From a virus, in the IMG/VR virus record IMGVR_UViG_3300025874_000005, positions 100,119-164,118 of that record: a stretch of DNA of 64,000 bases; one strand, 5' to 3'. A model generated the notes under the pieces. It did not search any database. It saw only the letters and a list, made by a program, of their open reading frames with translations, and had not been told where the DNA came from. The position numbers and the translations under genes are program-made. Positions 11,688-53,596 of the stretch are shown piece after piece (position 1 is the stretch's first letter; the number at the start of each line of letters is the position of its first letter).

Positions 11688-12095
11688 ATGAGAGACCACA
11701 CATTAGAAGCAATGCCTTATAAAGGAGAAATTCATGAAAAAGCATGGGGTCATGAGTTATGGATAATTAATAATGAATTCTATTGCGGTAAGTTATTAGT
11801 ATTTAAAAAGGATAAATCATTTTCAATGCATTATCATTTATTAAAAGATGAAGCATGGTACATCTCTAAAGGAAAATTTTTGTACAAATATATTGATACT
11901 GAGGATGCTGAGTATAAATCAATTGAAGTAACAGAAGGAGATTGTATACATTTAATGCCAGGACAGCCTCACCAAATGTTGGCTCTCGAAGAAGGAAGTT
12001 GTATATTTGAAGTATCAACACAGCACTTTGATAGTGATAGTTATAGAATAGGAATGGGATCTTCACAGTTAGATCCAAAAAACTTACCATTTTAA
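11688..12095 (+). CDS. Cupin-fold sugar-isomerase-like protein (mannose-6-phosphate isomerase type II / lyxose isomerase-like)
   Basis: KAWGHE...YCGKLL...SMHYHLLKDE...PGQPH...FEVST cupin metal-binding motifs. Confidence 0.7.
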   Translation: MRDHTLEAMPYKGEIHEKAWGHELWIINNEFYCGKLLVFKKDKSFSMHYHLLKDEAWYISKGKFLYKYIDTEDAEYKSIEVTEGDCIHLMPGQPHQMLALEEGSCIFEVSTQHFDSDSYRIGMGSSQLDPKNLPF

Positions 12096-36900: not shown

Positions 36901-39900
36901 CAACTTCAGGTTCAACAGGTACTTCAGGTACATCAGGTTCAAATGGGGTAGCAGGTGAAAGTGGCTTAAGTGCAACTTCAGGAACTTCAGGAACTTCAGG
37001 AGCAGATGGAACTTCAGGTACAAGTGGCGAAAGTGGCGAAAGTGGCTCATCAGGTACTAGTGGTACTTCAGGAGCAGATGGAACATCAGGAACAAGTGGT
37101 CTAAGTGCAACTTCAGGTTCATCAGGTACATCAGGTACTTCAGGAGCAGAGGGAACAAAAGGAACTTCAGGAAAAAGCGGAAAAAGCGGAACTAGTGGTT
37201 CAGCAGGTACTTCAGGTACTTCAGGTGAAACAGGAACAAATGGTACATCAGGTTTAAGTGCAACAAGCGGTTCAACAGGAACAAATGGTACAAGTGGCTC
37301 AAATGGAGTAGCAGGGGAAAGCGGTTTAAGCGCAACTTCAGGTACTTCAGGAACTTCAGGTGTAGATGGTACATCAGGTACAAGTGGTGTAAGCGGAACT
37401 GGAGGTTCATCAGGAACTTCAGGTACTTCAGGAGCAGATGGAACAGCAGGAACATCAGGTGAAAGTAGTACAAGTGGTTCTTCAGGTACTAGTGGTACTT
37501 CAGGTGAATCAGGTACTGCAGGAACATCAGGAGAAAGTAAAACAAGTGGTTCATCAGGTACTTCAGGTACTTCAGGTGAAACTGGAACAAATGGTACATC
37601 AGGTAAAAGTGCAACATCAGGATCAACGGGTACTAATGGTACTTCAGGTTCAAACGGAGTAGCAGGTGAAAGTGGCTTAAGTGCAACTTCAGGTACTTCA
37701 GGAACTTCAGGAGTAGATGGAACTTCAGGTACAAGTGGCATTAGTGGTACAAGTGGCTCATCAGGTACATCAGGTACATCAGGAGCAGATGGAACAAACG
37801 GAACTTCAGGTTTAAGTGCAACTTCAGGATCAGGAGGTACTTCAGGTACTTCAGGAGCAGATGGAACAAACGGAACTTCAGGAAAAAGTGCAACTTCAGG
37901 ATCATCAGGTACATCAGGTACTTCAGGTAAAACAGGAACAAACGGAACTTCAGGTAAATCAAATACTTCAGGTACATCAGGTACTTCAGGTTCCTCAGGT
38001 ACTAATGGTACAAGAGGTTTATCAGGTAAATCAAATACTTCAGGTACATCAGGTACTTCAGGTTCGACAGGTACTTCAGGTACATCAGGTGAATCAGGCA
38101 CAGCAGGAACAAGCGGAGAAAGTGCAACTTCAGGTTCGACAGGTACTTCAGGTACATCAGGTTCAAATGGAGTAGCAGGTGAAAGTGGCTTAAGTGCAAC
38201 TTCAGGAACTTCAGGAACTTCAGGTGTAGATGGCACCTCAGGAACTTCAGGTGTAAGTGCAACAAGCGGTTCATCAGGTACTTCAGGTACAAGTGGTGCT
38301 GATGGTACAGCAGGAACATCAGGTGAAAGTAATTTAAGTGGTACATCAGGTACATCTGGTACATCAGGTACATCAGGTTCAAGAGGTACTTCAGGTACTT
38401 CAGGCGAAAATGGTACATCAGGTACAAGTGGTGTAAGTGCAACAAGTGGTTCAGCAGGTACATCAGGTACTTCAGGTGAAACCGGAACAAATGGTACGTC
38501 AGGTTTAAGTGGTAAAAGTGGTACTTCAGGTTCAGCAGGTACTTCAGGTACATCAGGTAAATCAGGTAAAAACGGCACAGCAGGAACAAGTGGTAAAAGT
38601 TCAACTTCAGGATCAGCAGGTACAAATGGTACTTCAGGTAAAAATGGAACAGCAGGAACAAGTGGTAAATCAGGAACTTCAGGTTCAACAGGAACAAATG
38701 GTACATCAGGTTCAAATGGGGTAGCAGGAGAAAGTGGCCTAAGTGCAACTTCAGGAACCTCAGGAACTTCAGGTGTAGATGGTACTTCAGGTACAAGTGG
38801 TGAAAGTGGAGGAAGTGGTTCATCCGGTACTAGCGGTACTTCAGGAACAGACGGAACAAATGGAACAAAAGGTTCAAGTGGAAATAGTGCAACATCAGGT
38901 TCATCAGGTACATCAGGTACATCAGGTGAAAGTGGAACTTCAGGAACCTCAGGTTTAAGTTCAACTTCAGGAAGTTCAGGTACTTCAGGTACAAGTGGTA
39001 AATCAGGAAAAGATGGTACTGCTGGTACATCAGGTAAATCAAATACTTCAGGAAGTTCAGGTACTTCAGGTACATCAGGTACATCAGGTGAAAGTGGAAC
39101 TTCAGGAACCTCAGGTTTAAGTTCAACTTCAGGATCAAGTGGTACTTCAGGTACAAGTGGTAAAAATGGAACAGCAGGAACAAGTGGTAAATCAAATACA
39201 TCAGGAACAACAGGTACTTCAGGTACAAGTGGTTCAAACGGAGTGGCAGGAGAAAGTGGCCTAAGTGCAACTTCAGGAACCTCAGGAACTTCAGGTGTAG
39301 ATGGAACTTCAGGCACATCAGGTTTAAGTGGTACTGCAGGTTCAAGTGGTACAGCAGGTACTTCAGGTAAATCAGGAAAAGATGGCACTTCAGGTACATC
39401 AGGCAAATCAGGTACTTCAGGATCAGCAGGTACAAATGGTACTTCAGGTAAAAGTTCAACTTCAGGTACCTCAGGTTTAAGTTCAACTTCAGGAAGTTCA
39501 GGAACTTCAGGTACTTCAGGAGCAGATGGAACAGCAGGAACCTCAGGTGAAAGTAATTTAAGTGGTACATCAGGTACATCAGGTACATCAGGTACATCAG
39601 GATCAAGGGGTACTTCAGGTACTTCCGGTAAAAATGGAACAGCAGGAACCTCAGGTTTAAGTTCAACTTCAGGATCAGCAGGTACAGCAGGTACTTCCGG
39701 TAAAAGTGGAACAGCAGGTACAAGCGGTAAATCAAATACATCAGGTACATCAGGTACTTCAGGATCATCAGGTACTAATGGTACAAGAGGTTTATCAGGT
39801 CAATCAAATACCTCAGGTACATCAGGTTCTTCGGGTTCAACAGGTACAGCAGGTACTTCCGGTAAAAGTGGAGTAGCAGGTACAAGTGGTAAAAGTTCAA

Positions 39901-42900
39901 CTTCAGGAACAACAGGTACTTCGGGTACAAGTGGCTCAAACGGAGTAGCAGGTGAAAGTGGTTTAAGCGCAACTTCAGGTACTTCAGGAACGAGTGGAGT
40001 TGATGGTACATCAGGTACAAGTGGTGTAAGTGCAACAAGTGGTTCAGCAGGTACATCAGGTACTTCAGGTAAATCAGGAGCAGATGGAACAGCAGGTACT
40101 TCAGGTAAAAGTGCAACTTCAGGATCAGGAGGTACATCAGGTACAAGCGGTAAAAACGGAACAGCAGGAACCTCAGGTAAATCTAATACTTCAGGAAGTT
40201 CAGGTACAAATGGTACTTCAGGTAAAAATGGAACAGCAGGAACCTCAGGTAAATCAAATACTTCAGGAACATCAGGTACTTCGGGATCATCAGGTACTAA
40301 CGGTACAAGAGGCCTATCAGGTCAATCAAATACCTCAGGTACATCAGGTTCTTCAGGTTCAACGGGTACGGCAGGTACAAGCGGTAAATCAGGAGCAGAT
40401 GGAACAGCAGGAACTTCAGGTGTATCAAATACTTCAGGTTCTACAGGTACTTCAGGTAAGTCAGGAGCAGATGGAACCGCAGGAACCTCAGGTAAATCTA
40501 ATACTTCAGGATCAGGAGGTACTTCAGGTACTTCAGGTAAATCAGGAGCAGATGGAACAGCAGGAACTTCAGGTAAATCAAATACTTCAGGTTCTACAGG
40601 TACAAGTGGTACTTCCGGTAAAAGTGGAACAGCAGGTACAAGCGGTAAATCAAATACTTCAGGTACATCAGGTACTTCAGGATCATCAGGTACTAATGGT
40701 ACAAGAGGCCTATCAGGTCAATCAAATACCTCAGGTACATCAGGTTCTTCGGGTTCAACAGGTACAGCAGGTACAAGCGGTAAATCAGGAAAAGATGGTA
40801 CTGCGGGTACTTCAGGTGTATCAAATACTTCAGGTTCTACAGGTACTTCAGGTAAATCAGGAGCAGATGGAACAGCAGGAACATCAGGTAAAAGTTCAAC
40901 TTCAGGATCAGCAGGTACTTCAGGTAAATCAGGAGCAGATGGAACAGCAGGAACCTCAGGTAAATCAAATACATCAGGATCATCAGGTACATCAGGATCA
41001 TCAGGTATAGATGGGGGTAGTGGTGAAAGTGGCGAAAGCGCTACAAGTGGATCATCAGGTACTTCAGGTACTTCAGGTAAAAATGGTACTGCTGGAACTT
41101 CAGGTGTATCAAATACTTCAGGAAGTTCAGGTACAAATGGTACTTCAGGTAAAAATGGAACAGCAGGAACAAGTGGTAAATCAAACACTTCAGGTACATC
41201 AGGTACTTCGGGTTCCTCGGGTACTAATGGTACAAGAGGCCTATCAGGTCAATCAAATACCTCAGGTACCTCAGGTACATCAGGTTCTTCAGGTTCAACA
41301 GGTACGGCAGGTACAAGCGGTAAATCAGGAAAAGATGGAACAGCCGGAACATCAGGTAAAAGTGCAACTTCAGGATCAGGAGGTACTTCAGGTACTTCAG
41401 GTAAGTCAGGAGCAGATGGAACAGCAGGTACTTCAGGTAAAAGTGCAACTTCAGGATCAGGAGGTACATCAGGTACTTCAGGTAAAAATGGAACAGCAGG
41501 AACAAGTGGTAAATCAAACACTTCAGGAACATCCGGTACTTCAGGTTCCTCAGGTACTAACGGTACAAGAGGCCTATCAGGTCAATCAAATACCTCAGGT
41601 ACCTCAGGTACATCAGGTTCTTCAGGTTCAACGGGTACAGCAGGTACTTCAGGTAAATCAGGAGCAGATGGAACAGCAGGAACATCAGGTAAATCTAATA
41701 CTTCAGGTTCTACAGGTACTTCAGGTAAGTCAGGAGCAGATGGAACAGCAGGTACTTCAGGTGTATCAAATACTTCAGGATCAGCAGGTACTTCAGGTAA
41801 ATCAGGAGCAGATGGAACAGCAGGTACTTCAGGTGTATCAAATACTTCAGGATCAGCAGGTACTTCAGGTAAATCAGGAGCAGATGGAACAGCAGGAACC
41901 TCAGGTAAATCAAACACTTCAGGTTCTACAGGTACTTCAGGTACTTCAGGTAAATCAGGAGCAGATGGAACAGCAGGAACTTCAGGTAAATCAAATACTT
42001 CAGGTTCAACGGGTACGGCAGGTACAAGCGGTAAATCAGGAGCAGATGGAACAGCAGGAACATCAGGTAAATCTAATACTTCAGGATCAGCAGGTACTTC
42101 AGGTAAATCAGGAGCAGATGGAACAGCAGGAACCTCAGGTAAAAGTGCAACTTCAGGATCAGGAGGTACTTCAGGTACAAGCGGTAAAAACGGAACAGCA
42201 GGTACGTCAGGTACTTCAGGATCATCAGGTACAACTGGTTCAAGTGGTGTAGGTGGTGCTGGTGGTGTTTCAGGTGGATCAGGTACATCTGGTACATCAG
42301 GAAAAGATGGTACTTCAGGATCATCAGGTACATCAGGTACATCAGGTACTTCAGGTACTTCAGGTAAAAATGGTACAAGTGGTACATCAGGTATAAACGG
42401 TGCCTCAGGAGCGAGTGGAACACCTTTAGAGGTTTGGGTTGATGATAATACATCATTAGATTATGCTGCAAATATTAAGATAAATGGAGCAAATTATACA
42501 CAAGCATCACCATTTACATTAAATACAGATTTTTCATTAGGTATTACAAACCCATTCCAAATAGGTAAAAACCAACCAGACTTAACTAATACAAGTGCAA
42601 TTAATGGTACAGGATTTATTGAATATCTAATCCCAGGTGCAGATGGTTTTACTGGGGAATTTTATACTGGTGGGGGGAATGCAGGTGGAGTAACTCAATT
42701 TGAATTAGTAGCTTTAAACAGTGCTGGTAATTGGGATGAAGCAGATGCTGATTTATCATCAACAAAGAATTTATTGGGTGTTGCATATAAGGCAACCGGA
42801 GTATTGGTTGATGTTATATTAAGAGGTATGATTAAATCTAAGACTTTTAGTTTTACTGTTGGAGCACCAGTTTATGTTTCAAGAACACCTGGGGGTTTCA

Positions 42901-43013
42901 CACAATCATTAACAGGATTTGTTACTGGTGATTATGTAAGATTAGTAGGACATTCCATAGAAACTAATGTTTTATATTTCAACCCAGAACCAACATGGAT
43001 CTTAATTTCATAA
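33990..43013 (+). CDS. Giant Gly-Thr-Ser triplet-repeat (collagen-like/PPII-like) fibre protein, 3007 aa
   Basis: About 280-aa globular N-terminus, about 2530 aa of period-3 repeats, about 195-aa globular C-terminus; synonymous codon variation across repeats indicates selection on the protein. Confidence 0.85.
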   Translation: MALDKIKKSNRLLQSKRYTMEQSTDAQEAFTRTLDINAGDVYIRENFVPLNNLPYSGSGQNQDTIESGSALTAVDIVKFHFQHQLTPSSVVNGSKTEVFFFISKSAHDPTIAVTPQIIQDGQQTNFLSPKYSDASLTFKNTEDNVPAGNGTPGYNVTVRVNGTEQDSAFYQFDYKTGVIQFVDNSVSPSTGDTVVLSAYQYVGPTLADGGVGGGNAFPFSGSAQITGSVGGVPGGFAVTGSSTFDVSGTGDDFSIISAPIQDRPELLTYNPSTGLIGYVNATSGTSGFSGSSGTAGQSGTSGTSGSSGSTGTNGTSGESGTSGTSGESATSGTSGTSGTSGTSGENGTNGTSGLSATSGSSGTSGTSGESGTAGTSGESATSGSSGTSGTSGESGTVGTSGESATSGSSGTSGTSGADGTRGTSGSSGTSGTSGTSGTSGADGTRGTSGESATSGSSGTSGTSGESGTAGTSGESATSGSSGTSGTSGADGTRGTSGESATSGSTGTSGTSGSNGVAGESGLSATSGTSGTSGADGTSGTSGLSATSGSSGTSGTSGADGTRGTSGESATSGSSGTSGTSGESGTAGTSGESSTSGSSGTSGTSGADGTSGTSGKSATSGSTGTNGTSGSNGVAGESGLSATSGTSGTSGADGTSGTSGVSGTAGSSGTSGTSGADGTRGTSGESATSGSSGTSGTSGESGTAGTSGESETSGSSGTSGTSGADGTSGTSGLSATSGSTGTNGTSGSNGVAGESGLSATSGTSGTSGVDGTSGTNGKSGTSGSSGTSGTSGADGTNGTSGLSATSGSSGTSGTSGTSGESGTAGTSGESATSGSAGTSGTSGESGTNGTSGESATSGSTGTNGTSGSNGVAGESGLSATSGTSGTSGVDGTSGTSGVSGTGGSSGTSGTSGADGTNGTSGLSSTSGSTGTSGTSGESGTAGTSGESETSGSSGTSGTSGADGTSGTSGLSATSGSTGTSGTSGSNGVAGESGLSATSGTSGTSGADGTSGTSGESGESGSSGTSGTSGADGTSGTSGLSATSGSSGTSGTSGAEGTKGTSGKSGKSGTSGSAGTSGTSGETGTNGTSGLSATSGSTGTNGTSGSNGVAGESGLSATSGTSGTSGVDGTSGTSGVSGTGGSSGTSGTSGADGTAGTSGESSTSGSSGTSGTSGESGTAGTSGESKTSGSSGTSGTSGETGTNGTSGKSATSGSTGTNGTSGSNGVAGESGLSATSGTSGTSGVDGTSGTSGISGTSGSSGTSGTSGADGTNGTSGLSATSGSGGTSGTSGADGTNGTSGKSATSGSSGTSGTSGKTGTNGTSGKSNTSGTSGTSGSSGTNGTRGLSGKSNTSGTSGTSGSTGTSGTSGESGTAGTSGESATSGSTGTSGTSGSNGVAGESGLSATSGTSGTSGVDGTSGTSGVSATSGSSGTSGTSGADGTAGTSGESNLSGTSGTSGTSGTSGSRGTSGTSGENGTSGTSGVSATSGSAGTSGTSGETGTNGTSGLSGKSGTSGSAGTSGTSGKSGKNGTAGTSGKSSTSGSAGTNGTSGKNGTAGTSGKSGTSGSTGTNGTSGSNGVAGESGLSATSGTSGTSGVDGTSGTSGESGGSGSSGTSGTSGTDGTNGTKGSSGNSATSGSSGTSGTSGESGTSGTSGLSSTSGSSGTSGTSGKSGKDGTAGTSGKSNTSGSSGTSGTSGTSGESGTSGTSGLSSTSGSSGTSGTSGKNGTAGTSGKSNTSGTTGTSGTSGSNGVAGESGLSATSGTSGTSGVDGTSGTSGLSGTAGSSGTAGTSGKSGKDGTSGTSGKSGTSGSAGTNGTSGKSSTSGTSGLSSTSGSSGTSGTSGADGTAGTSGESNLSGTSGTSGTSGTSGSRGTSGTSGKNGTAGTSGLSSTSGSAGTAGTSGKSGTAGTSGKSNTSGTSGTSGSSGTNGTRGLSGQSNTSGTSGSSGSTGTAGTSGKSGVAGTSGKSSTSGTTGTSGTSGSNGVAGESGLSATSGTSGTSGVDGTSGTSGVSATSGSAGTSGTSGKSGADGTAGTSGKSATSGSGGTSGTSGKNGTAGTSGKSNTSGSSGTNGTSGKNGTAGTSGKSNTSGTSGTSGSSGTNGTRGLSGQSNTSGTSGSSGSTGTAGTSGKSGADGTAGTSGVSNTSGSTGTSGKSGADGTAGTSGKSNTSGSGGTSGTSGKSGADGTAGTSGKSNTSGSTGTSGTSGKSGTAGTSGKSNTSGTSGTSGSSGTNGTRGLSGQSNTSGTSGSSGSTGTAGTSGKSGKDGTAGTSGVSNTSGSTGTSGKSGADGTAGTSGKSSTSGSAGTSGKSGADGTAGTSGKSNTSGSSGTSGSSGIDGGSGESGESATSGSSGTSGTSGKNGTAGTSGVSNTSGSSGTNGTSGKNGTAGTSGKSNTSGTSGTSGSSGTNGTRGLSGQSNTSGTSGTSGSSGSTGTAGTSGKSGKDGTAGTSGKSATSGSGGTSGTSGKSGADGTAGTSGKSATSGSGGTSGTSGKNGTAGTSGKSNTSGTSGTSGSSGTNGTRGLSGQSNTSGTSGTSGSSGSTGTAGTSGKSGADGTAGTSGKSNTSGSTGTSGKSGADGTAGTSGVSNTSGSAGTSGKSGADGTAGTSGVSNTSGSAGTSGKSGADGTAGTSGKSNTSGSTGTSGTSGKSGADGTAGTSGKSNTSGSTGTAGTSGKSGADGTAGTSGKSNTSGSAGTSGKSGADGTAGTSGKSATSGSGGTSGTSGKNGTAGTSGTSGSSGTTGSSGVGGAGGVSGGSGTSGTSGKDGTSGSSGTSGTSGTSGTSGKNGTSGTSGINGASGASGTPLEVWVDDNTSLDYAANIKINGANYTQASPFTLNTDFSLGITNPFQIGKNQPDLTNTSAINGTGFIEYLIPGADGFTGEFYTGGGNAGGVTQFELVALNSAGNWDEADADLSSTKNLLGVAYKATGVLVDVILRGMIKSKTFSFTVGAPVYVSRTPGGFTQSLTGFVTGDYVRLVGHSIETNVLYFNPEPTWILIS
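34833..42423 (+). repeat. 7.6-kb degenerate 9-bp coding tandem repeat (GGT ACT/ACA TCA) with a 351-360-bp higher-order unit
   Basis: ggtacttca/ggtacatca/ggaacaagt units throughout; SNGVAGESGLSATS marker recurs 11 times. Confidence 0.95.
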
Positions 43014-43017
43014 AAAT

Positions 43018-43746
43018 ATGCCTCAAGTAAATTTAGCCCCATATACTACAAACAGCTCTAACTATGCTTTAGGTAATATTAGAAGAACGGGTGTAGGTTC
43101 CTGGACTTCTATTAGAACAGGCACACCAGTTTCAGGAAATGTGTCTCAAACAGGTAATTCTACTAAAAGTATTGGTGTTGCTTGGACTGGAGGTAGTAGA
43201 GGATCATATAGCTTATATAGAAATTATATATGGTATGATGTAACAGCCTACCAAAGCGTTTTAATAACTTCAGCAGAATTAACTTGTCCTACAACGGCAG
43301 GGGTAACTGCTTTAGCACTTCCAGTAATAGCAGTAGATAGTAGTACTGCTTTTAGTAATAATTCAAACACAACATTAAGTTTAAGTCAATTTCTTTCTAC
43401 TTCTTTTGTAGCTTATAGTAATTCTACAAATTGGGCACAAACCACAGGTTTCCAACAAATAACCCTAAATAGTTCAGCAATAGTAGCAATACAAAATGGA
43501 AATAATTTTGGAGTTGGTATTATAGACCATAATTATGATTTTCAAAATGTTCAACCCTCAGGTATTGGATTTGATGGTTTTTATTTAGGTGATATGTCAA
43601 ATGCAACACAAAGATCAAGATGGACATTAACTTTAAATTACATAGCAGGATGGTCAGCCGGAGACATGAATGGAGTGGCAAGTAGTGACATGGGGGAAGT
43701 TAATGGTGTAGCTATAGCAGACATAAGTGAAATTAATGGTATTTAA
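43018..43746 (+). CDS. Ser/Thr-rich beta-sandwich-like structural protein
   Basis: 242 aa; YRNYIWYDVT...ITSAEL pattern; C-terminal 11-residue NGV/NGI repeats. Confidence 0.55.
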   Translation: MPQVNLAPYTTNSSNYALGNIRRTGVGSWTSIRTGTPVSGNVSQTGNSTKSIGVAWTGGSRGSYSLYRNYIWYDVTAYQSVLITSAELTCPTTAGVTALALPVIAVDSSTAFSNNSNTTLSLSQFLSTSFVAYSNSTNWAQTTGFQQITLNSSAIVAIQNGNNFGVGIIDHNYDFQNVQPSGIGFDGFYLGDMSNATQRSRWTLTLNYIAGWSAGDMNGVASSDMGEVNGVAIADISEINGI

Positions 43747-43752
43747 CAATAG

Positions 43753-43783: not shown

Positions 43784-43808
43784 TCAAGTAGTTTTAAAAA
43801 ATAGTTAT

Positions 43809-46520
43809 ATGAAGAAAATCTTATTTATAGCGCCTCATCTTTCAACAGGAGGACTCCCACAATATTTAACTAAAAAAATTGAACTTATTAAAGATGAGTT
43901 TGAAGTATATGTAGTAGAATGGGTAGATTGTACTGGGGGGAAATTAGTTGTAACCAAAAATAAAATATTAGAATTAGTAGATAATAATAAATTTTTTACA
44001 CTTGAAGAAGATAAAAGTGAATTATTTAATATTATAGATAGGATTACACCAGACATTATTCATTTAGAAGAAATTCCTGAGTATTTTATGGATGATGATA
44101 TAGCTCGAAAGTTATATGATGTAAATAGAAGTTATTTTTTAGTAGAAACATCACATGATTCTTCTATGGATACAGACACTAAAATATTCTCACCAGATAA
44201 GTTTATGTTTGTGTCAAACTGGCAAATAGAACAGTATAAAAACATAGATATACCTAAAATACTGGTAGAATACCCAATTGAATATATCCCCAGACCTAAT
44301 AGAGAAAATGCGTTAAAACGCTTAAATCTCGACCCATCAAAAAAACATATATTACATATAGGTTTATTTACTTCTAGAAAAAACCAAAAAGAATTTTTTG
44401 AATATGCTGAAGCATTACCTGAATATGAATTTCATAGTGTAGGAAACCAGGCAGATAATTTTAAATGGTATTGGGAACCTTTAATGGAAAATAAACCAAC
44501 TAATTTAACTTGGTGGGGTGAACGAACTGATGTAAATAATTTCTATCAATCAATGGATTTATTTTTATTTACATCTAGAGGAAGTAAAAATGATAAAGAA
44601 ACAATGCCTCTAGTAATACGTGAAGCTTTATCTTATCAAATACCACAACTATTATATAATTTAGAAGTTTATCAAAATTATTTTGAAGACTATAATACAA
44701 TTAATTATTTAGATTTTGCAGATTTTAATAAGAACGTTAAATTAATTAAAAATCAACTAAATACCCCTTCTATAATACCCCCAGATGTTGAAGAAAAAGA
44801 AGCATATGTGATTTGTACTTACCCAAATACACAAGCAGTAGTAGATACCACAATAGAATGTATTAAATCATTAAGAAAAAACAGTAATAGAAAAATAATT
44901 ATATCCGCACATTGTCCTGTTCCAAAGGAATTACAGGGTATGGTTGATTATGTTTTTTATGAAAAAAATAATTTATTAACAAAACATACATTCTACTCAG
45001 GTTATTGGATGTATCATGATCAATATGATACCCATGTAAATTTAAAAGGTGAAGATAATGATAGATATCACGGCCCAGCATGTTATACATCCTTCTATAA
45101 CCCAGCAACATTTGCTAAAGAATTAGGGATTGAAAAATTATACTATATTAACTTTGATTATATTCTTAAAGATAGTAGTTATATAGATTATATATCTAAA
45201 AAATTAAATACTCATGATACTTTCTTTGGTGAATATGAAGCACAAGAAGGTAAATGTTATTATACATATTTCTTTGCAGTCAAACCAGATGCAATTTTAA
45301 GACATTGTGATTTTATAGAAACTGAAAATCAATATAATAGTCTTATGGATAAGTATGAGGCTGAATCTAATGGTATTGAAAATTTATATTATCATATATT
45401 TAAAAATAATATAAATAACTATATTGAACCAAAAGAAAAATTTGAATCTGATGCTGAAAAGTATTTTGAATTTGAGGATTATTCAATGATTGAATATTAT
45501 ACTATACTTCCTACAGATGTAGATAATCATTTTTGTCCTTGGATAACTATTTCTAATGCTAAAGAAAGTAAGAATATCTACTATACAGTAGAAAAAAATG
45601 GTGAAGTTATCATTGATAGATTGCTAGAAGTTAGGGGAAAATTTTCATTTTGGGATTTAGTAAAATATGATTTAGATGATAACATCATAGTTACATTTGA
45701 TGTAAAAGATACTAATACTGGAGAAAGTGTAAAATATCATAAATTTAATTTAAATAAAGATTATTTTTTAAATACAATGCCTAATAATGGTATGTTTAAT
45801 TGGAAAGGAGATAGAAGTAGATACAACCCAAAAATTAAACTAATGCATTTAGTTACAGAACCAGATGTAAATGAAAAAGAAATAAGATCAGTAAAAAATA
45901 TTAAAGAATTTTGTGAATCAACAGGTATAGAATACGAACAAAGAATAAATAAAATATGGACTGACTTACCCCCAATTGATACTTGTAATAGACCTGAAGA
46001 TGTTCAAGACAAACCAGGATATTATAAACTAGCACCAGGACATTATGGGTGTTATAAAGCACACACAAATGCTATTATGTCTGAAAATAATAAAGATTAT
46101 GATTATATTTTAATCTTTGAAGGGGATGTTATTGTTGATTCCCCATTTGATGAATTAAAACAAGCTTTAAATCGTTTTAGTAATCTATCTAAATCTAATA
46201 ATCAGGACATTATAGGATTTGGCAACCCTTACCAAAATCGTAATTTAAATGGGCCTAAAATTGAAGACATATACACTAATATATCTCCATTTATACCTGC
46301 ACAATCTTATTTAATAAATAAAAATAAATTACAACTTATTCAAGATAAAATTAAAAATACAAAATGGGATGCTTTTGATATGTGGGTATGTAATGTAGCT
46401 AAATTAAAAGTAGGAACAGCAGAAAAAATTTATACTAAACATCTACCAGGATTTAGTATAATTGAGCAAGAAATAAAAACAACAGACGAAAATAGTCCTT
46501 TAATATACGCTGGAGAATGA
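43809..46520 (+). CDS. Multidomain glycosyltransferase (N-terminal GT-B/GT4-like, central unknown domain, C-terminal GT-A/GT25-like)
   Basis: HLSTGGLPQY, RKNQ, DLFLFTS...ETMPLVIREA (GT4 ExxxxxxxE); C-terminal GHYGCYKAH, ILIFEGD, AQSYLIN, AFD. Confidence 0.8.
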   Translation: MKKILFIAPHLSTGGLPQYLTKKIELIKDEFEVYVVEWVDCTGGKLVVTKNKILELVDNNKFFTLEEDKSELFNIIDRITPDIIHLEEIPEYFMDDDIARKLYDVNRSYFLVETSHDSSMDTDTKIFSPDKFMFVSNWQIEQYKNIDIPKILVEYPIEYIPRPNRENALKRLNLDPSKKHILHIGLFTSRKNQKEFFEYAEALPEYEFHSVGNQADNFKWYWEPLMENKPTNLTWWGERTDVNNFYQSMDLFLFTSRGSKNDKETMPLVIREALSYQIPQLLYNLEVYQNYFEDYNTINYLDFADFNKNVKLIKNQLNTPSIIPPDVEEKEAYVICTYPNTQAVVDTTIECIKSLRKNSNRKIIISAHCPVPKELQGMVDYVFYEKNNLLTKHTFYSGYWMYHDQYDTHVNLKGEDNDRYHGPACYTSFYNPATFAKELGIEKLYYINFDYILKDSSYIDYISKKLNTHDTFFGEYEAQEGKCYYTYFFAVKPDAILRHCDFIETENQYNSLMDKYEAESNGIENLYYHIFKNNINNYIEPKEKFESDAEKYFEFEDYSMIEYYTILPTDVDNHFCPWITISNAKESKNIYYTVEKNGEVIIDRLLEVRGKFSFWDLVKYDLDDNIIVTFDVKDTNTGESVKYHKFNLNKDYFLNTMPNNGMFNWKGDRSRYNPKIKLMHLVTEPDVNEKEIRSVKNIKEFCESTGIEYEQRINKIWTDLPPIDTCNRPEDVQDKPGYYKLAPGHYGCYKAHTNAIMSENNKDYDYILIFEGDVIVDSPFDELKQALNRFSNLSKSNNQDIIGFGNPYQNRNLNGPKIEDIYTNISPFIPAQSYLINKNKLQLIQDKIKNTKWDAFDMWVCNVAKLKVGTAEKIYTKHLPGFSIIEQEIKTTDENSPLIYAGE

Positions 46521-47473
46521 AAATATGCCATGTAGACCCAGCTTGTGGGTTAGATATCCCACCAAAAAATTGGGGAGCAATTGAAAAAATTATTTGGGAA
46601 TTTATAAATAATCAAAAATTACTAGGCCATGAATCTACCTACAAATTATCTTCTCATATTAATCTTGGAGAATTTGATATTGTACATTGTCATGTAGCTA
46701 ATTTAGCAATTGGTTTACAAGAAAGAAATATACCCTATATATTCCAACTTCATGACCACCATGCATTTCATTATGGTAAAGACTCACATATATTTAAAGA
46801 AAATTTAAAAGCTATAGAAGGATCACTTTTAACCTTACTACCAGGTAAATTTTTAGTTGATTATTTTAACCACCCCAAAGCACAATATTTTTCTCATGGG
46901 GTTAATGTTAATGAATTTTATCCTTCACCTAACCCAAATCCTATAAAAATAACAAACCCCAAACTGTTGATGGTTGCAGCTAATGGTTTAGCTGGTGATA
47001 AGGGTTATGATAGAAAAGGATTTAAATATGGATTAGCTTTAGCAGCAAAACATAATTTAGATATAACCATAGCAGGTCCAAACTTTAATAAAGAATTTTT
47101 TAATCAACATTTAGAAATGTTTAATTATCCAAAATTAAACTTAGTCTTTGATACACCCAACAATAAATTATTAGAATTATATCACAAACATGATATTTTT
47201 ATTCACCCTACAATGCTAGAAGCAGGCCACCCAAATTTAACTATGATTGAAGCCGCAGCTGCTGGTTTACCTATAATAGCAAATTGGGAATATGAAACAG
47301 ATTTTCATGGTGCTTGGAGATCACCACGTGATATATTTCACATGGAAGTAGGGTTAAAAGATATAATAAATAACTATGACTATTATAAAGTTAGAGCAGT
47401 AGCTACTGGAAAAGAATTAAGCTGGAAAAACAGAACAAAAGATTTATTAGAAATTTATAAAAATTTTATATAA
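46517..47473 (+). CDS. GT-B glycosyltransferase (GT4-like)
   Basis: IPPKNWGAIE, HGVNVNEF, RKG, DIFIHPT..EAGHPNLTMIEAAAAGLPII. Confidence 0.85.
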   Translation: MKICHVDPACGLDIPPKNWGAIEKIIWEFINNQKLLGHESTYKLSSHINLGEFDIVHCHVANLAIGLQERNIPYIFQLHDHHAFHYGKDSHIFKENLKAIEGSLLTLLPGKFLVDYFNHPKAQYFSHGVNVNEFYPSPNPNPIKITNPKLLMVAANGLAGDKGYDRKGFKYGLALAAKHNLDITIAGPNFNKEFFNQHLEMFNYPKLNLVFDTPNNKLLELYHKHDIFIHPTMLEAGHPNLTMIEAAAAGLPIIANWEYETDFHGAWRSPRDIFHMEVGLKDIINNYDYYKVRAVATGKELSWKNRTKDLLEIYKNFI

Positions 47474-47474
47474 T

Positions 47475-48677
47475 ATGAAAGAAATTTTAATCCAAGAATA
47501 TAATAATTTATCTAAATTACTTATTAAACCAAAACCTCAATCTAACTTTTACCACATTAACTTTATTAATGGGGCTAAATTAGAAATTACAGGTAAAATA
47601 GATAAAAAATATAACATCCAATTTTACGACCAAAATACATTAGAATTACTTTTTGAAAGTGAAATTACAAATAATATGTGGACTAAATTTAACAAAACAT
47701 ATTATATAAATTATAATATTAAAGTAATAGATTTAGAAAATAATACAGTTGTTTTTGAACATAAATTTAATGCAAAAAACAAAAGAGTTTATATTCATTT
47801 TGCCTCAAAAGCCTTAGGGGATACTATAGCATGGTTTCCATTTGCTGAAGAGTTTAGAAAAAAGCACCAATGTGAATTAATTGTTTCTACTTTCCATAAC
47901 AGTATGTTTAAGGAAAACTATCCAAACATTAAATTTATAACTCCTGGAGAAGAACAATTTGACTTATATGCTATGTATGAAGTTGGGTGGCATTATAATG
48001 AAGATGAAAAAATAGATTATAATAAAAATATATCAGATTTTAGAAAACATGGTTTACAAAAATGTAGTGGTGAAATTTTAGGAGTTAACCAATCAGAAAT
48101 TAAACCAAAACTAACATTCAAAAATACAGGATCTACAATAGAAGGAAAATATGTCGTTATAGCACCCCATGGGTCGGCACATGCTAAGTATTGGAATTAT
48201 AAAGGAGGGTGGCAAACAATAATAGATTATTTAAATAATAAAGGTTATAAAGTAGTAATGATAACACAAGAATTATTAGGAGACAAATGGCATGATTCTA
48301 AATTAGGAGGAACTTTAACGGGGGTTATTGATAAAACTGGAGATTACCCTTTAAGTGAAAGAGCTAATGATATGTTAAATGCTAAAGCTTTTATTGGTAT
48401 TGGAAGTGGGTTAAGTTGGTTAGCTTGGGCTTTAAAAACCCCTGTAGTAATGATATCAGGATTTAGTGAAGCTTATAGTGAATTTGAAGATTGTGAAAGA
48501 ATATCATCACCTAAAAATAAATGTTCTGGATGTTTTAATAGAGTAAGATTAGATGCAGGAGATTGGGAATGGTGTCCTGATCATAAGGATACAGATAGAA
48601 TGTTTGAATGTACTAAATCAATAACACCAGATACAGTAATTGCTGCTATAAACCATCAATTAGAAAAATCTCTTTGA
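47475..48677 (+). CDS. Autotransporter O-heptosyltransferase (Aah/TibC)-like protein glycosyltransferase
   Basis: ALGDTIAWFP, KYWN..GGW, FIGIGSGLSWLAWA...VVMISGFS, C-x2-C-x13-C-x11-C metal-finger motif ending FECTKSITP. Confidence 0.8.
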   Translation: MKEILIQEYNNLSKLLIKPKPQSNFYHINFINGAKLEITGKIDKKYNIQFYDQNTLELLFESEITNNMWTKFNKTYYINYNIKVIDLENNTVVFEHKFNAKNKRVYIHFASKALGDTIAWFPFAEEFRKKHQCELIVSTFHNSMFKENYPNIKFITPGEEQFDLYAMYEVGWHYNEDEKIDYNKNISDFRKHGLQKCSGEILGVNQSEIKPKLTFKNTGSTIEGKYVVIAPHGSAHAKYWNYKGGWQTIIDYLNNKGYKVVMITQELLGDKWHDSKLGGTLTGVIDKTGDYPLSERANDMLNAKAFIGIGSGLSWLAWALKTPVVMISGFSEAYSEFEDCERISSPKNKCSGCFNRVRLDAGDWEWCPDHKDTDRMFECTKSITPDTVIAAINHQLEKSL

Positions 48678-48686
48678 TATTTATAA
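48677..48686 (+). promoter_or_regulatory. Putative late promoter motif ATATTTATAA
   Basis: Exact copy; flanks (tgatatttataacaaaa) identical to the 13617 copy. Confidence 0.65.
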
Positions 48687-48698
48687 CAAAATTATAGA

Positions 48699-50651
48699 AT
48701 GGCAATTAAACTTTCAAATACAGGCATAACACCAGGAGCAGTAGTTAAATCCGCTGAAGTTTCTCAATCTATAGATGCTTTTACAGGTACTATAGCCTAT
48801 GATATTCAACAATCAGGCTCATTTAGCCAAACAGGTTCTTCTATACTATCAGGTTCAGTTTATCTACCAGATAATACTCATATGGGGATTGGTACTGCAC
48901 CATCTCCAACAGCTGGAGTTAAATTAACTTTAAAAGCAAATGACTCTTCAAATGATCCAACAATCTTATTAGAAGCATTTGGAGCAGCAGATTCAGCTAC
49001 TATAGGGTGGAAAAATCCTGATGTAAGGTGGAATTTAGGGTTAGCTGGAGGAAGTTCTGATTCTTTTGTTCTACAAAATCAAACAACTAATAAGTTTCCT
49101 ATTTTAATAGATTACTCTTCTTCTGATGCATCAATAGTACTTAGAAATGATAATGGGTCAGATTTATTTCAAAAAGTTGGTATTAATTGGCCTTATGGTG
49201 AGATGGGTTTTGGATCACCAAATCATACACTTTTAGTTAGTGGCTCTGTAACATCATCAGTAGGTTTTTATGGTGATTTAATAGGAACAGCTTCTGTAAC
49301 GGATAAGGCTAAAGTAAGTAATATGATTGCAAATCAAACCAATCCAGTTTTAGTTATGCCCGGAACAGTTGATGGAGGTTATAAAGATGTTATGGCCGAT
49401 CCATTATATCTTAACTTTAATAATATAACAAAAATATTAGAAACAACTGCATCATGGGCAACAGAGTCAATTTCTGCTTCTTATAGTGAAACAGCATCTT
49501 ATGCCTTAACAGCTGAATCAGCAAATCCTCTTTGGTATGATGGGGGTACTTATATCTCATCTTCTTACGGTACTATTGTAAGTGGATCGACAGCAGAATT
49601 TGTACTTTATAGAGGGGGTGTAACCAATACATCCTTAGTATCATCATCTGCAGTCCACTCAATAAATTTTTCTGGAAGCAATTATACAGCTTCAAGTGCT
49701 GTATCCAGTATTGTTATAGGATCTAATAATATATCTTACGATTATAATGGAAGAAGCTACATCCAAAATAAAAATGTAGGAGCTAGTGCTACATTAAATA
49801 TTGGGGTAGGTGGCGTTGGAGGAACAACATCTTCAGCAATAATAATAAATAGTAACAATGAAACCTCAATTGGTTCATCATCACCTGCTTTTAGTTACCC
49901 ATTAGGATATACAGCTGGAGAAATACATTCATATGTCCAAATGCAGAATAACCACCAAGATTCTTCATCAGTATTAGCTGTAAAAGGTGCAAATGGAAGT
50001 GACGGTATTATTTATTTAGGAGGAAATGAAGCATATGGTGGAGGTATTTTATATCATGGTGGGGGTGGAACTTCCCAAATACCTACTGCATTTGCTAGTC
50101 AGAAAACAGCATTATATAGAAGTAGTCAATCTGTTCCATTCCCAGTAATAGATTTTCCTACAGATAATAATCACATTATGGCAAGGTTAGATTCTAGCCC
50201 TGAATCTGATGCTAATTTAGATTATTTTGGTATGGGTCCTTCAGGTAATATAGAGCCCTATAGAAGAACTTACATGCTTAATGGGATACTTACATCTGGT
50301 GCAGGTAATTCTGTCTCCTTAGGTCAAGTATCTGCCGTTCAATCTGGTACTTATTTAGTAAAATTAACTGTAGGTAAATCTAATAATCAATCCCCAACTG
50401 ACGTTGGAGCTATAATAGAAGAAATACAAACCTTTTATGTAGATTCATTTGGAAATCAACCACAAGCTTTGATTACTGGAACAGCACCAGGCCCTACAAC
50501 AGTAGCTGAGGGATCATTCGGTAGTGGAAACACAACCATCCAAATACTCCCCATTTCAACCGGTTTTCAATTCCGCGCTAATGGTAATGTAGGAGAAAAT
50601 ATGAACTTACAAGGCTTTGCAGAAGTAACATTTTTCCCTAATTCTATTTAA
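48699..50651 (+). CDS. Tail-fibre-like structural protein
   Basis: MGIGT/VGIN fibre-type repeats, TASWA/SASYS/TASYA repeats, many SGS motifs. Confidence 0.6.
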   Translation: MAIKLSNTGITPGAVVKSAEVSQSIDAFTGTIAYDIQQSGSFSQTGSSILSGSVYLPDNTHMGIGTAPSPTAGVKLTLKANDSSNDPTILLEAFGAADSATIGWKNPDVRWNLGLAGGSSDSFVLQNQTTNKFPILIDYSSSDASIVLRNDNGSDLFQKVGINWPYGEMGFGSPNHTLLVSGSVTSSVGFYGDLIGTASVTDKAKVSNMIANQTNPVLVMPGTVDGGYKDVMADPLYLNFNNITKILETTASWATESISASYSETASYALTAESANPLWYDGGTYISSSYGTIVSGSTAEFVLYRGGVTNTSLVSSSAVHSINFSGSNYTASSAVSSIVIGSNNISYDYNGRSYIQNKNVGASATLNIGVGGVGGTTSSAIIINSNNETSIGSSSPAFSYPLGYTAGEIHSYVQMQNNHQDSSSVLAVKGANGSDGIIYLGGNEAYGGGILYHGGGGTSQIPTAFASQKTALYRSSQSVPFPVIDFPTDNNHIMARLDSSPESDANLDYFGMGPSGNIEPYRRTYMLNGILTSGAGNSVSLGQVSAVQSGTYLVKLTVGKSNNQSPTDVGAIIEEIQTFYVDSFGNQPQALITGTAPGPTTVAEGSFGSGNTTIQILPISTGFQFRANGNVGENMNLQGFAEVTFFPNSI

Positions 50652-50703
50652 TAGTTTTTAATAATAATATAATTTTAATAACAAGTTTTAATACGTATAA
50701 AAG

Positions 50704-50949: not shown

Positions 50950-50968
50950 ACTTTTGACAGAAAACCAT

Positions 50969-50978
50969 ATATTTATTA
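50969..50978 (+). promoter_or_regulatory. Late promoter variant ATATTTATTA
   Basis: Intergenic, 23 nt before the sheath ATG. Confidence 0.55.
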
Positions 50979-51001
50979 TCAAAATATAACAATTACATAA
51001 C

Positions 51002-53596
51002 ATGGCAGAAACATTAATTTCCCCAGGAGTATTAGCAAGAGAAAACGATCAATCCCAGATTACATCTCAACCAATACAAGCCGGTGCAGCAATAATAGGA
51101 CCAACAGTAAAAGGTCAAGTAAACATTCCAAGGCTTATTACCACTTATAGTGAGTATCAAGCTAATTTTGGTACTACCTTCGAAAGTGGGTCGGCAAACC
51201 AAAAAAGTGAATATACTTTCTTAACTTCAATCTCAGCTTATAATTACTTCTCAAATGGAGGTACTTCGCTAATTGTTACTAGAGTAGCCTCAGGTTCTTT
51301 TTCACCAGCAACTTCTTCTAAGATTGCTAATGATCAAGAAACAGGACAAATTTTAGCTACAACTAATTTATTAGGATCTGCCGTAGGTGGTGGAGGTGGA
51401 GATGCTACATTCTCTGGAACACCTGCTTTTACAGGAGGAACAGGAACAGGATTAACACTTAACGCAGCAGTAACAACAAATGGGGGTGTTAAAGTAGCAG
51501 TAGATACTTTATTAGATAATTTAAATGCAGGTACAAATCCAACAGATGCAGTAGATGGATCTTACACAGTTCCATTAGTTGGAGGAACAGGAACAAATTT
51601 AACAGCTTCAATTACAGTATCAGGCCAAACAGTTACTTCTATTACAACTCCCCTAGCAACATCAGGTTCAGGTTACACAGCTTTAGATGCTTTAACTTTC
51701 CCAGCAGGTGCTTTATCAGATGGTCAGTTAAAAACAGCTCAAGATATATTATCTATATCTAATGGTGGCGCTTTAGCAATAGGAGCAGGTGGTCCAGCAA
51801 CTGGAGTAGCTATTACAACAGTTACTGGGGGTACAGTACAAACAGGAACAGGAGCAACAGTCGATATAACATCAGATGGAACAAATGTTTCAGTACTAAC
51901 AGTAAATGCATTAGGAACAGGATATGTTACAGGTAATGTATTAACAATTACACAAGCAGATTTAGTTACAGCTGGATTCGCAACTGCAGCAGCAGATTTA
52001 ACAATTACATTAACCCCTGCAAATGTTGAATTATCAACAGCAGGAGCCTTAACATTACAAGCTGCAGATTTATTTTACTCACTAACAACTTTAAATGCTG
52101 CTACAGAAGGTACAGGATATGAAGTTAATGATCAATTAACAATTGTAGCAGGTGCTATGGGTGCAAATTCATCAGAATGTATAATTACATTAGTAGATGC
52201 TGATATAGTAGATGGAAATGCATTTATATTAGAATCAATTGGTCAAGGCCAAATCATGAATAGTACAGGAGCTGAAAATTCTCAAGGTGCTTTAACAAAT
52301 GGATCATCAAATAATTTAAGATGGGAAATTACATCACCAAATACCTCTTCAGGTACGTTTAGTGTAGTAATTAGACAAGGTAATGATAATACAAGAGCTA
52401 AATCAGTACTTGAAAGCTTTACTAATGTATCATTAGACCCAAAATCATCAAATTATATTTCAAGAGTAATTGGTGATCAAACACAAACAGTAAAAGGAGT
52501 TGGAACAACAGATGTTTACCTACAAACAACTGGATCTTATGCCAATGCTTCAAGATACGTAAGAGTAAAAGAAGTTAATTTCAAAACACCAGATTATTTA
52601 GATAATAGTGGACAAGCAAAACCAGAATATACAGCTTCTATACCAGTACAAGCTTCAGGAACATTTGGAGATGCAGTAGGTAGTATTTTAACCGGAACTG
52701 GAAAATATTATGATAAAATTACAGCAGATGATACTCAAGGATTAGTTGGAGATAATTATACAACTGCAATTAATTTATTAGCAAATAAAGATGATTACAA
52801 ATACAACATTATCTCAACACCAGGTTTAACTCAAGCAGATTATACATCAACAACCAATAAATTAATTTCTAACACAGAAAATAGAGGAGATAATATTGTA
52901 ATATTAGATCTTGAACTATATGCTAAGTCTATTACAAATGTTACTACAACGGCAGCAAGTAAAGACTCATCATATGCAGCTTCATATTGGCCTTGGTGTA
53001 TGGTAACAGATCCAGATTCAGGACAAAGAGTTTGGGTACCAGCAGGAACATTAATTCCAGGAGTTTATGCTAATAATGATAGAACAGCAGAAGCATGGTT
53101 TGCCCCAGCAGGTATTAATAGAGGTGGATTAGGTCAAGTAATTCAAGCTGAAAGAAAATTAACTCAAGCTAATAGAGATGAATTATATATTAATAAAGTA
53201 AATCCTATTGCAACCTTCCCAGGAAGAGGAGTAGTAGTATTTGGTCAGAAAACACTACAAAATCAAGCATCAGCTTTAGATAGAGTAAATGTTAGAAGAT
53301 TGTTAATTGCACTTAAAAATTATATTTCTCAATTATCTGATAATTTAGTATTTGAACAAAATACAGCGGCTACAAGAAATACATTCTTAAGCCAAGTTAA
53401 TCCATATTTAGAGTCAGTACAGCAAAGACAGGGTTTATACGCGTTTAAAGTTGTTATGAATGATTCAAATAATGGACCCGATGTAATTGATAGAAACGAA
53501 TTAAGAGGTGCTATATACATACAACCTACTAAAACGGCTGAATTCATTTACTTAGATTTCAACATTTTACCAACTGGAGCAGAATTTCCAGCATAA
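51002..53596 (+). CDS. gp18: Contractile tail sheath protein (T4 gp18-like) with a large internal insertion
   Basis: SPGVLARE, GPTVKG, YWPW, WFAPAGINRG, VNPI, VFGQKTL, RVNVRRL, FEQN, PTKTAEFI motifs. Confidence 0.95.
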   Translation: MAETLISPGVLARENDQSQITSQPIQAGAAIIGPTVKGQVNIPRLITTYSEYQANFGTTFESGSANQKSEYTFLTSISAYNYFSNGGTSLIVTRVASGSFSPATSSKIANDQETGQILATTNLLGSAVGGGGGDATFSGTPAFTGGTGTGLTLNAAVTTNGGVKVAVDTLLDNLNAGTNPTDAVDGSYTVPLVGGTGTNLTASITVSGQTVTSITTPLATSGSGYTALDALTFPAGALSDGQLKTAQDILSISNGGALAIGAGGPATGVAITTVTGGTVQTGTGATVDITSDGTNVSVLTVNALGTGYVTGNVLTITQADLVTAGFATAAADLTITLTPANVELSTAGALTLQAADLFYSLTTLNAATEGTGYEVNDQLTIVAGAMGANSSECIITLVDADIVDGNAFILESIGQGQIMNSTGAENSQGALTNGSSNNLRWEITSPNTSSGTFSVVIRQGNDNTRAKSVLESFTNVSLDPKSSNYISRVIGDQTQTVKGVGTTDVYLQTTGSYANASRYVRVKEVNFKTPDYLDNSGQAKPEYTASIPVQASGTFGDAVGSILTGTGKYYDKITADDTQGLVGDNYTTAINLLANKDDYKYNIISTPGLTQADYTSTTNKLISNTENRGDNIVILDLELYAKSITNVTTTAASKDSSYAASYWPWCMVTDPDSGQRVWVPAGTLIPGVYANNDRTAEAWFAPAGINRGGLGQVIQAERKLTQANRDELYINKVNPIATFPGRGVVVFGQKTLQNQASALDRVNVRRLLIALKNYISQLSDNLVFEQNTAATRNTFLSQVNPYLESVQQRQGLYAFKVVMNDSNNGPDVIDRNELRGAIYIQPTKTAEFIYLDFNILPTGAEFPA

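Follow-up and report, generated by a model that had tools for sequence, protein, structure and literature searches.

An uncultured phage genome encodes, beside the gene for a giant Ser/Thr-rich collagen-like fiber, an intact TibC/Aah-family (BAHT, GT9) glycosyltransferase, and we hold with moderate confidence that this is an active BAHT that O-glycosylates the phage's own fiber with an ADP-activated sugar, most likely ADP-heptose. What the sequences show is that the protein belongs to the family and has its predicted fold, that the residues for catalysis and donor binding are conserved along with the gene order, and that pathway genes exist in the genome; glycosylation of the fiber is inferred from these. 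To our knowledge, every BAHT described so far is a virulence-associated enzyme whose substrate is a proteobacterial autotransporter, and a literature search found no paper describing a phage BAHT or its pairing with a fiber. Here members of the family are encoded in a module that at least 216 IMG/VR phage contigs share, and in it they are paired with giant collagen-like fibers rich in Ser/Thr. If the fiber is glycosylated, abundant marine phages would be equipped with a collagen-like, sugar-coated organelle for host recognition, BAHTs would have a wider range of acceptors than is now known, and the heptose-pathway genes scattered among aquatic phages would have a use. Coexpression in E. coli and (GTS)n peptides would then also offer a simple system for bench work.

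Phage genome and presumed host

The source is a 164,118-bp IMG/VR virus record that is 100% complete according to CheckV, and its last 64 kb, the whole stretch of 64,000 nucleotides analyzed here, is referred to as the window. The genome has a G+C content of about 30%, and almost all of its genes lie on one strand. The closest cultured relative is Flavobacterium phage vB_FspM_immuto, and TibC-bearing phage-like contigs have been binned with Flavobacteriales metagenome-assembled genomes (MAGs). The phage is accordingly taken to be of the Flavobacteria type, the host being presumed from sequence comparison, and to be marine; runs with small word shares were left out of the habitat inference. Run X1 suggests that nearly identical DNA is present at high depth in a small data set. 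A megablast search of GenBank phages gave no match to the module described below, and the cultured relative immuto lacks the whole of it. A BAHT is encoded by only 4 of 50,697 GenBank phage records.

Family membership and predicted fold

47475..48677, + strand: TibC/Aah-family (BAHT, GT9) glycosyltransferase, 400 aa, intact ORF (TIGR04414, TibC in the PDB, AlphaFold2, Foldseek)

The protein scored 336 bits against the NCBIfam model TIGR04414 (hepto_Aah_TibC; cutoff, 200; E = 2.6e-100), with 335.7 bits in the genome search, and the TibC chains 4rap/4rb4 in the PDB aligned with it nearly end to end, over residues 21 to 396 (E = 2.3e-63). Given these two E values, motif and homology are far beyond chance. 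The models of the lipopolysaccharide (LPS) heptosyltransferases WaaC, WaaF, and WaaQ gave just 20 to 41 bits against cutoffs of 170 to 467.

An AlphaFold2 model was built from 53 homologs, down to 40% identity, and had a pLDDT of 92.3 and a pTM of 0.88. Its predicted domains are an N-terminal beta-barrel at about residues 25 to 109, where the model places strands, a GT-B catalytic domain, and a four-Cys knuckle. A Foldseek comparison of the model with TibC (4rap/4rb4) gave TM-scores of 0.82 to 0.87 over about 390 columns, with an E value of about 1e-37 and 34% identity, and the next-best matches were GT9 chains (3tov, WaaF, and WaaC) with TM-scores of 0.42 to 0.52. The first-pass annotation, made from the letters and their ORFs, had proposed an Aah/TibC homolog as opposed to a WaaC/WaaF-type LPS enzyme. 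That proposal stands, since TibC, with its Cys knuckle, is the best structural match and WaaC and WaaF reach at most 0.52. Homology and predicted fold together confirm the 400-aa protein as a true BAHT relative.

Conserved residues and the thumb

47820..47822, + strand: D116 codon, aligned with the TibC catalytic base D110 and invariant in 53 of 53 homologs
48522..48611, + strand: iron-finger-type motif C350-x2-C353-x13-C367-x11-C379, aligned with TibC C339/C342/C358/C370

The roles of the corresponding residues in TibC (catalytic base, ADP-heptose contacts, and iron-finger Cys, with their numbering) follow PMC4358343. The motifs pointed out in the first-pass annotation are present, with LGD at residues 114 to 116, SGLSWLAWA at residues 311 to 319, and the four Cys as listed above. 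S234 and K238 correspond to TibC T226 and K230, which contact the beta-phosphate; K238 is invariant, and position 234 is Ser or Thr in all 53 homologs. R296 corresponds to R286, the adenine N1 contact, and is kept in 44 of the 53. W315, inside SGLSWLAWA, corresponds to W305, the heptose O4 contact, and is invariant in the 53 homologs; F377 corresponds to F368. The stereoselectivity site (P300 in TibC and S294 in Aah) is Gly in the phage protein, which is not unusual because an E. coli plasmid BAHT also has Gly there.

Each of the four Cys of this putative iron finger is present in 52 of 53 homologs. C340, 9 residues upstream, is a fifth Cys. The thumb region reads LGDKWHDSKLGG, which has a 3-residue insertion and is modeled as a helix at residues 271 to 276. 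The clade-wide pattern at this site is a conserved insertion, LGD[KE]WHDSKLGG, predicted to form a short helix. In both the alignment and the model, the hydrophobic beta-hairpin thumb tip F265/V266, through which TibC protomers join hand in hand in the dodecamer, is absent and replaced, so the dodecamer mechanism of TibC may not apply. Some distant relatives retain G-Y-M or G-Y-F at the thumb site.

A conserved module in the tail gene block

33990..43013, + strand: proline-poor collagen-like fiber, 3007 aa, candidate acceptor (translation, triplet statistics)
43018..43746, + strand: conserved viral protein (p242), 242 aa, between the fiber and glycosyltransferase genes (Atlas; CBM96-like as a lead only)
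43809..46520, + strand: multidomain glycosyltransferase (GT903), 903 aa (Pfam, AlphaFold2 model)
46517..47473, + strand: GT4 glycosyltransferase, 318 aa (Pfam Glycos_transf_1; in 73 of 80 related loci)
48699..50651, + strand: Ser/Thr-rich fiber-like variable protein (p650), 650 aa, possible further acceptor ([ST][GAQ]S density)
51002..53596, + strand: tail sheath (53% identity to the immuto tail sheath)

The GT903 stop codon overlaps the GT4 start codon (ATGA), and a single nucleotide separates the GT4 stop from the ATG of the TibC-like gene, which indicates that the three genes are translationally coupled. GT903 consists of a GT4 domain (residues 1 to 325), an alpha/beta domain plus a beta-sandwich (about 330 to 650), and a GT25-like domain (about 660 to 880). 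Its structure matches come from residues 1 to 325 only, with a VIA Z of about 20 to HepE/WaaG/PimA. Downstream of the TibC-like gene lie p650, an 81-aa protein (p81), and then the tail sheath and tube, and with the sheath as a neighbor the module sits in the tail gene block. No PHROGs family was found for the TibC-like protein, the fiber ends, p242, p650, or p81, and p242 had no Pfam match.

Relatives are encoded by 216 IMG/VR stretches, of which 80 loci were compared; the protein search for relatives returned 4213 proteins with E values up to 1e-10. The gene order in the 80 loci is fiber, p242 (optional), GT903, GT4, methyltransferase and others (optional), TibC-like gene, p650 (optional), p81, and sheath, and at least 80 contigs of uncultured phages preserve the module. 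Where the sequence reaches 5 kb or more upstream of the TibC-like gene (40 loci), a collagen-like ORF is present on that side in 37, and where it reaches 7 kb or more (30 loci), in 29. The accessory genes of the relatives are those of glycan tailoring, including FkbM and other methyltransferases, a carbamoyltransferase, and GT2s, and a methyltransferase domain is fused to the TibC-like gene in some of them. The TibC domain of Microcystis phage Mel-JY01 (43% identity) forms the C terminus of a 1227-aa enzyme encoded after a Ser/Thr-rich collagen-like ORF.

Two runs from a single study of marine metatranscriptomes contained contigs with full identity to stretches of the GT903, GT4, and TibC-like genes, at depths of 11 to 24. 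They give a weak hint of transcription of the glycosyltransferase genes, as contigs from RNA libraries may derive from DNA carryover.

Donor sugar

The window contains no gmhA, hldE, or gmhB gene, as had been noted from its ORFs, and in the 164-kb genome, heptose-pathway-like genes occur only outside it, 80 to 97 kb from the TibC-like gene. One encodes an HldA-like PfkB kinase (G000 50519-51265) whose best family is TIGR02198 (HldE domain I; E = 3e-36; 125 bits against a cutoff of 345) and whose best PDB match is HldA (4e84); at 248 aa it is short of the 315-position model, and it carries the HldA-type motif SPEAPVPV. The other encodes an HldC-like nucleotidyltransferase of 134 aa (G000 68063-68467), with TIGR02199 (HldE domain II) as the best family (E = 2e-29; 102 bits against a cutoff of 181.5) and mixed cytidylyltransferases as PDB matches. 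Two SDR epimerase/dehydratase genes reached 73 to 74 bits with TIGR02197 (HldD; cutoff, 274.6), and GalE and LegB scored higher on them. No GmhA was found in the phage genome with TIGR00441 and PF13580, and no GmhB was found with TIGR00213 and TIGR01656, nor were there a DxDxT motif or a homolog of the cyanophage small HAD protein. The first-pass suggestion that the donor pathway lies elsewhere in the genome is thus half right: genes resembling HldA and HldC do lie there, and GmhA and GmhB were not found.

A cupin encoded within the window was considered as a substitute for GmhA:

11688..12095, + strand: D-lyxose-isomerase-like cupin (Cupin_2 and Lyx_isomer above cutoffs; 49% to a cyanophage cassette member by tblastn)

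This candidate is weak, as the cupin is missing from the 97%-complete relative G185, which has the TibC-like gene along with both the kinase and the transferase.

Among 151 sampled genomes of the Flavobacteriaceae, the family of a Winogradskyella MAG, HldE-kinase-like genes were found in 2 (E up to 1e-30) and GmhA-like genes in 4 (E up to 1e-20), none of them above the cutoff. The earlier expectation of a heptose-poor host is plausible on these counts, for a host that is itself presumed. That the presumed host family is mostly without the pathway and the phage is without GmhA and GmhB counts against ADP-heptose, as it leaves heptose-7-phosphate with no evident source.

Other phages bear on the donor in both directions. 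Some heptose-pathway gene is present in four of the five distinct complete TibC-positive phage genomes, including an HldA-like gene in LR756501 (306 bits) and a GmhA above the cutoff in LR756504 (251 bits), and an HldA-like kinase was matched in just 32 of 50,697 phage records. Further observations count against ADP-heptose transfer to the fiber: the HldA-like and HldC-like genes score below their equivalog cutoffs; no heptose-pathway gene was detected in the TibC-positive phage Mel-JY01; the 62%-complete relative G026 has no kinase at the syntenic slot, which its sequence covers; and the same kinase/nucleotidyltransferase pair occurs in cyanophages without TibC. HldA and HldC searches in 32 TibC-positive IMG/VR records were all negative, a result that is uninformative except for G026 because these records are 10 to 69% complete and the two genes lie so far from the TibC-like gene in the present genome.

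The same enzyme may act on the same fiber with a different ADP-sugar, for example, an ADP-hexose from the phage's own anomeric-kinase-like/adenylyltransferase-like pair, which would be a new donor specificity for a BAHT. We regard this as a genuine possibility, though not a probable one. It would accommodate the lack of GmhA and GmhB in the phage and in most sampled Flavobacteriaceae, the short kinase with its subthreshold score, and the occurrence of the pair in cyanophages without TibC, and the conserved adenine-contacting Arg fits any ADP-sugar. However, no known heptose contact has been lost, be it W315 or backbone site 310, where the E. coli plasmid BAHT also has Gly, the kinase has the HldA-type motif, and heptose-specific genes recur in TibC-positive phages, as in LR756504 and LR756501. 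Taken together, the sequences favor ADP-heptose as the donor, with another ADP-sugar possible.

The collagen-like fiber as the candidate acceptor

A search of the 164-kb genome for the autotransporter family PF03797 found nothing at E values up to 0.1, and in a genome without an autotransporter the 3007-aa (G-T-S)n fiber is the likely acceptor. The fiber contains 759 strict G-X-Y triplets (in runs of at least 3), of which 308 are GTS, and Ser occupies 69% of the Y positions. An in-frame ATS triplet recurs about every 8 triplets, and the repeat region has only 5 Pro. The rise per residue in collagen is established geometry, and on the assumption that it applies here, the repeat would be roughly 0.75 micrometer long. 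A search of IMG/VR with the C-terminal 137 aa of the fiber found nothing, and its N-terminal domain had one homolog only among the loci compared. In the TibC-positive loci, 33 of 37 distinct fiber ORFs have Ser or Thr at 50% or more of the X and Y positions. The fiber is probably sugar coated by the TibC-like enzyme.

A sublineage of three loci (L038, L061, and L062) has the TibC-like gene together with G-Y/P-Q fibers with 12 to 20% Ser/Thr, which counts against the fiber as the acceptor. In favor of the fiber, four relatives without the glycosyltransferase cluster between fiber and sheath have G-T-Q fibers; their contigs are fragments, and a TibC gene may sit elsewhere in these genomes.

The Ser/Thr-poor fibers of some TibC-positive lineages leave some room for an alternative in which the main acceptors are the 650-aa, 846-aa, and 2722-aa tail/baseplate proteins, which have Ser/Thr-small-Ser tracts, and the fiber is a mere neighbor or is served by the GT4s. 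The density of [ST][GAQ]S in these three proteins is 13 to 21 per 1000 aa (20 in p650) against a genome mean of 4.9. The fiber, however, exceeds them all by a wide margin (36 per 1000 aa) and contains about 1260 Ser/Thr, and it is nearly always present, whereas the p650 gene is found in just 21 of the 80 loci. We consider this alternative unlikely.

Proposed mechanism

In the reading that we prefer, O-glycosylation of the fiber, the TibC-like enzyme would be made late in infection along with the two upstream glycosyltransferases. D116 would act as the base, like D110 of TibC, and the enzyme would transfer the sugar of an ADP-activated donor, most likely ADP-glycero-manno-heptose, to Ser, possibly also Thr, hydroxyls of the (G-T-S)n fiber and perhaps of other tail proteins rich in Ser/Thr-Gly-Ser. 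The activation steps may fall to the HldA-like kinase and the HldC-like adenylyltransferase; for the isomerase and phosphatase steps, no phage gene could be assigned. The GT4 and GT25-like enzymes and, in relatives, the methyl- and carbamoyltransferases could then extend or tailor the glycan. The coupling to further glycosyltransferases suggests that the product is probably an oligosaccharide instead of a single heptose.

A bolder version of this scheme can be drawn, which we put forward as speculative and on balance doubtful. In it, the phage builds an ADP-heptose-type donor noncanonically within a heptose-less host, with the HldA-like and HldC-like proteins and with a cupin-type aldose-ketose isomerase or host enzymes in place of GmhA and GmhB. 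A remodeled, possibly nondodecameric BAHT would then hyperheptosylate the fiber of about 0.75 micrometer, which would make it a virus-made glycosylated collagen bearing a sugar foreign to the host.

Phage glycosyltransferases that modify host glycans are known, and the three enzymes of the module might likewise act on host material, such as a lipid-linked or surface glycan or adhesins, for example, in superinfection exclusion or receptor masking. By their Pfam names, GT9, GT4, and GT25 are indeed families that build LPS/LOS cores. The TibC-like protein, however, matches a protein-specific BAHT equivalog with a beta-barrel and a Cys knuckle, far above its scores with the LPS models, and its gene is fixed between fiber and sheath in at least 80 lytic-type contigs. 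In addition, no BAHT was found in 400 sampled Bacteroidota genomes, save on one phage-like contig. A host target is therefore improbable in our view. It is harder still to credit that the protein is catalytically dead or only a scaffold for fiber assembly, as its remodeled thumb might suggest, since neither the catalytic Asp nor the phosphate-binding Lys varies among 53 homologs down to 40% identity.

Comparison with known systems

The LPS heptosyltransferases WaaC, WaaF, and WaaQ (GT9) resemble the phage enzyme in the CAZy family fold of the catalytic domain and in the ADP-heptose donor that is favored for it. They differ from it in having no beta-barrel or Cys knuckle, with scores of 20 to 41 bits and TM-scores of 0.42 to 0.52.

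The T4-like cyanophage cassette T4-GC 304-308 (P-SSM2, S-SM2, S-CAM1, and others) shares homologs of the HldC-like protein (40%), the kinase (33%), and the cupin (49%). In the cyanophages, which are without a BAHT, these genes are adjacent and accompanied by a small HAD-type protein and a carbamoyltransferase, whereas in the present genome they are scattered and the HAD protein is lacking.

Phage glycosyltransferases that decorate the phage's own virion proteins have been described in mycobacteriophages (Freeman et al. 2023, as cited in PMC12619734 and PMC12801897). As that system is described in the citing papers, other glycosyltransferase families are involved, the acceptors are the C termini of the capsid and tail-tube proteins, and a BAHT, a collagen-like fiber, or a heptose pathway does not feature. 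Collagen-like acceptors are described for BclA of Bacillus anthracis and for BclA3, with SgtA, of C. difficile, in which a Thr-rich G-X-Y region is O-glycosylated by dedicated glycosyltransferases and forms a surface nap of filaments (PMC7157674 and PMC6222408). According to these descriptions, they differ from the phage fiber in that they belong to bacterial spores, consist of GPT-type triplets, bear rhamnose/anthrose or GlcNAc, and are modified by glycosyltransferases of other families.

The nearest known systems are TibC-TibA and Aah-AIDA-I of E. coli (bacterial autotransporter heptosyltransferases [BAHT]; PDB 4rap/4rb4; PMC4358343), of which TibC attaches heptose to adhesins. In contrast to these, the phage gene resides in a lytic phage without an autotransporter partner, its neighbor is a Pro-poor collagen-like fiber instead of a beta-helix, it is coupled to further glycosyltransferases, the dodecamer thumb tip is replaced, and the presumed host lineage is mostly without the heptose pathway. 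TibC recognizes a beta-helix loop, not a triple helix, which counts against glycosylation of the fiber. Because the partner autotransporter and the hydrophobic thumb were both absent when tested, the phage enzyme is not considered part of an autotransporter glycosylation system. It nevertheless shares with TibC and Aah the family, the whole-chain fold, the catalytic Asp, and the ADP-heptose contacts at 34 to 37% identity, and in both cases a hyperrepetitive, Ser-rich, secreted or exposed substrate is encoded nearby.

Collagen-like fibers and the neighboring 242-aa protein

In the 3,007-aa fiber (window 33990-43013), a Gly triplet is replaced in frame by ATS, STS, or NTS approximately every 24 residues, and the fiber therefore has a regular 8-triplet superperiod. 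Microcystis phage Mel-JY01 (GenBank accession number PP395634.1) also contains a collagen-like open frame.

L108:2-3052, + strand: Mel-JY01 collagen-like open frame of 1,016 aa (G-X-Y, 606 residues; Ser/Thr, 40%)

This frame is incomplete because the record begins within it, and the region is annotated as two minus-strand hypothetical CDSs rather than as the plus-strand G-X-Y frame. The fibers of four IMG/VR relatives (loci L143, L144, L147, and L148), which have no glycosyltransferase cluster between fiber and sheath, consist of G-T-Q/G-K-Q triplets, and from the sequence the fiber terminus reads like an intramolecular-chaperone (S74-type) tail fiber domain.

Between the window's fiber and its glycosyltransferase genes, window 43018-43746 encodes a 242-aa protein whose clusters are found only in viruses. 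CBM96 is present in the closest Atlas clusters that have a name (score 0.94), a link that serves as a lead only.

Octamer motif and a probable match to the same phage in run X1

The plus strand of the window contains 18 copies of the octamer TATTTATA. Of these, 13 precede the start of an ORF by 11 to 33 nt, and one of the 13 belongs to the 650-aa gene directly after the stop codon of the TibC-like gene. Together with its complement, the octamer was observed 27 times in the window, compared with 15.6 expected; a role as a late promoter or leader motif is possible.

Window 2073, 9064, 13618, 16164, 18083, 27340, 31413, 48678, 53613, 55263, and 58254, + strand: examples of TATTTATA copies

Run X1 is a small data set from 2023 (76 million letters, organism code A). 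One of its contigs, of 10,956 nt, matches window 42347-53302 with 0 differences at a depth of ~361, which suggests that X1 was derived from this same phage, as an isolate, as an enrichment, or by single-virus sequencing.

Sugar-related genes and the cyanophage cassette

The complete phage genome (G000) contains a second sugar cluster outside the window.

G000 38071-47500 (L087): two GT4-like genes, two SDR epimerase/dehydratases, one truncated-looking NDP-sugar dehydrogenase, and one GT2

A phage-type short HldA-like gene was also observed on a contig of a Winogradskyella MAG (G034:C132:10214-10969; L098). Its reading frame spans two in-frame stop codons (one TAG, one TAA), so the gene is possibly a degraded copy or else an artifact of the frame.

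Window 11688-12095, + strand: cupin of 135 aa, matching Pfam Cupin_2 and D-lyxose isomerase, both above the cutoffs
L153:9725-10069: P-SSM2 "phosphoheptose isomerase" (T4-GC 306)
L152:14975-15286 and 16616-16945: S-SM2 "phosphoheptose isomerase" (T4-GC 306)

The T4-GC 306 genes of P-SSM2 and S-SM2 contain a DxDxT motif, match HAD phosphatase models weakly, and have no match to SIS models; the "phosphoheptose isomerase" label is therefore probably wrong. By motif and model matches, their products look like small HAD phosphatases and are possible GmhB analogues. The window cupin, which could be a sugar isomerase, shares 49% identity with the cyanophage "cysteine dioxygenase" (T4-GC 307), a member of the kinase/nucleotidyltransferase sugar cassette of T4-like cyanophages.
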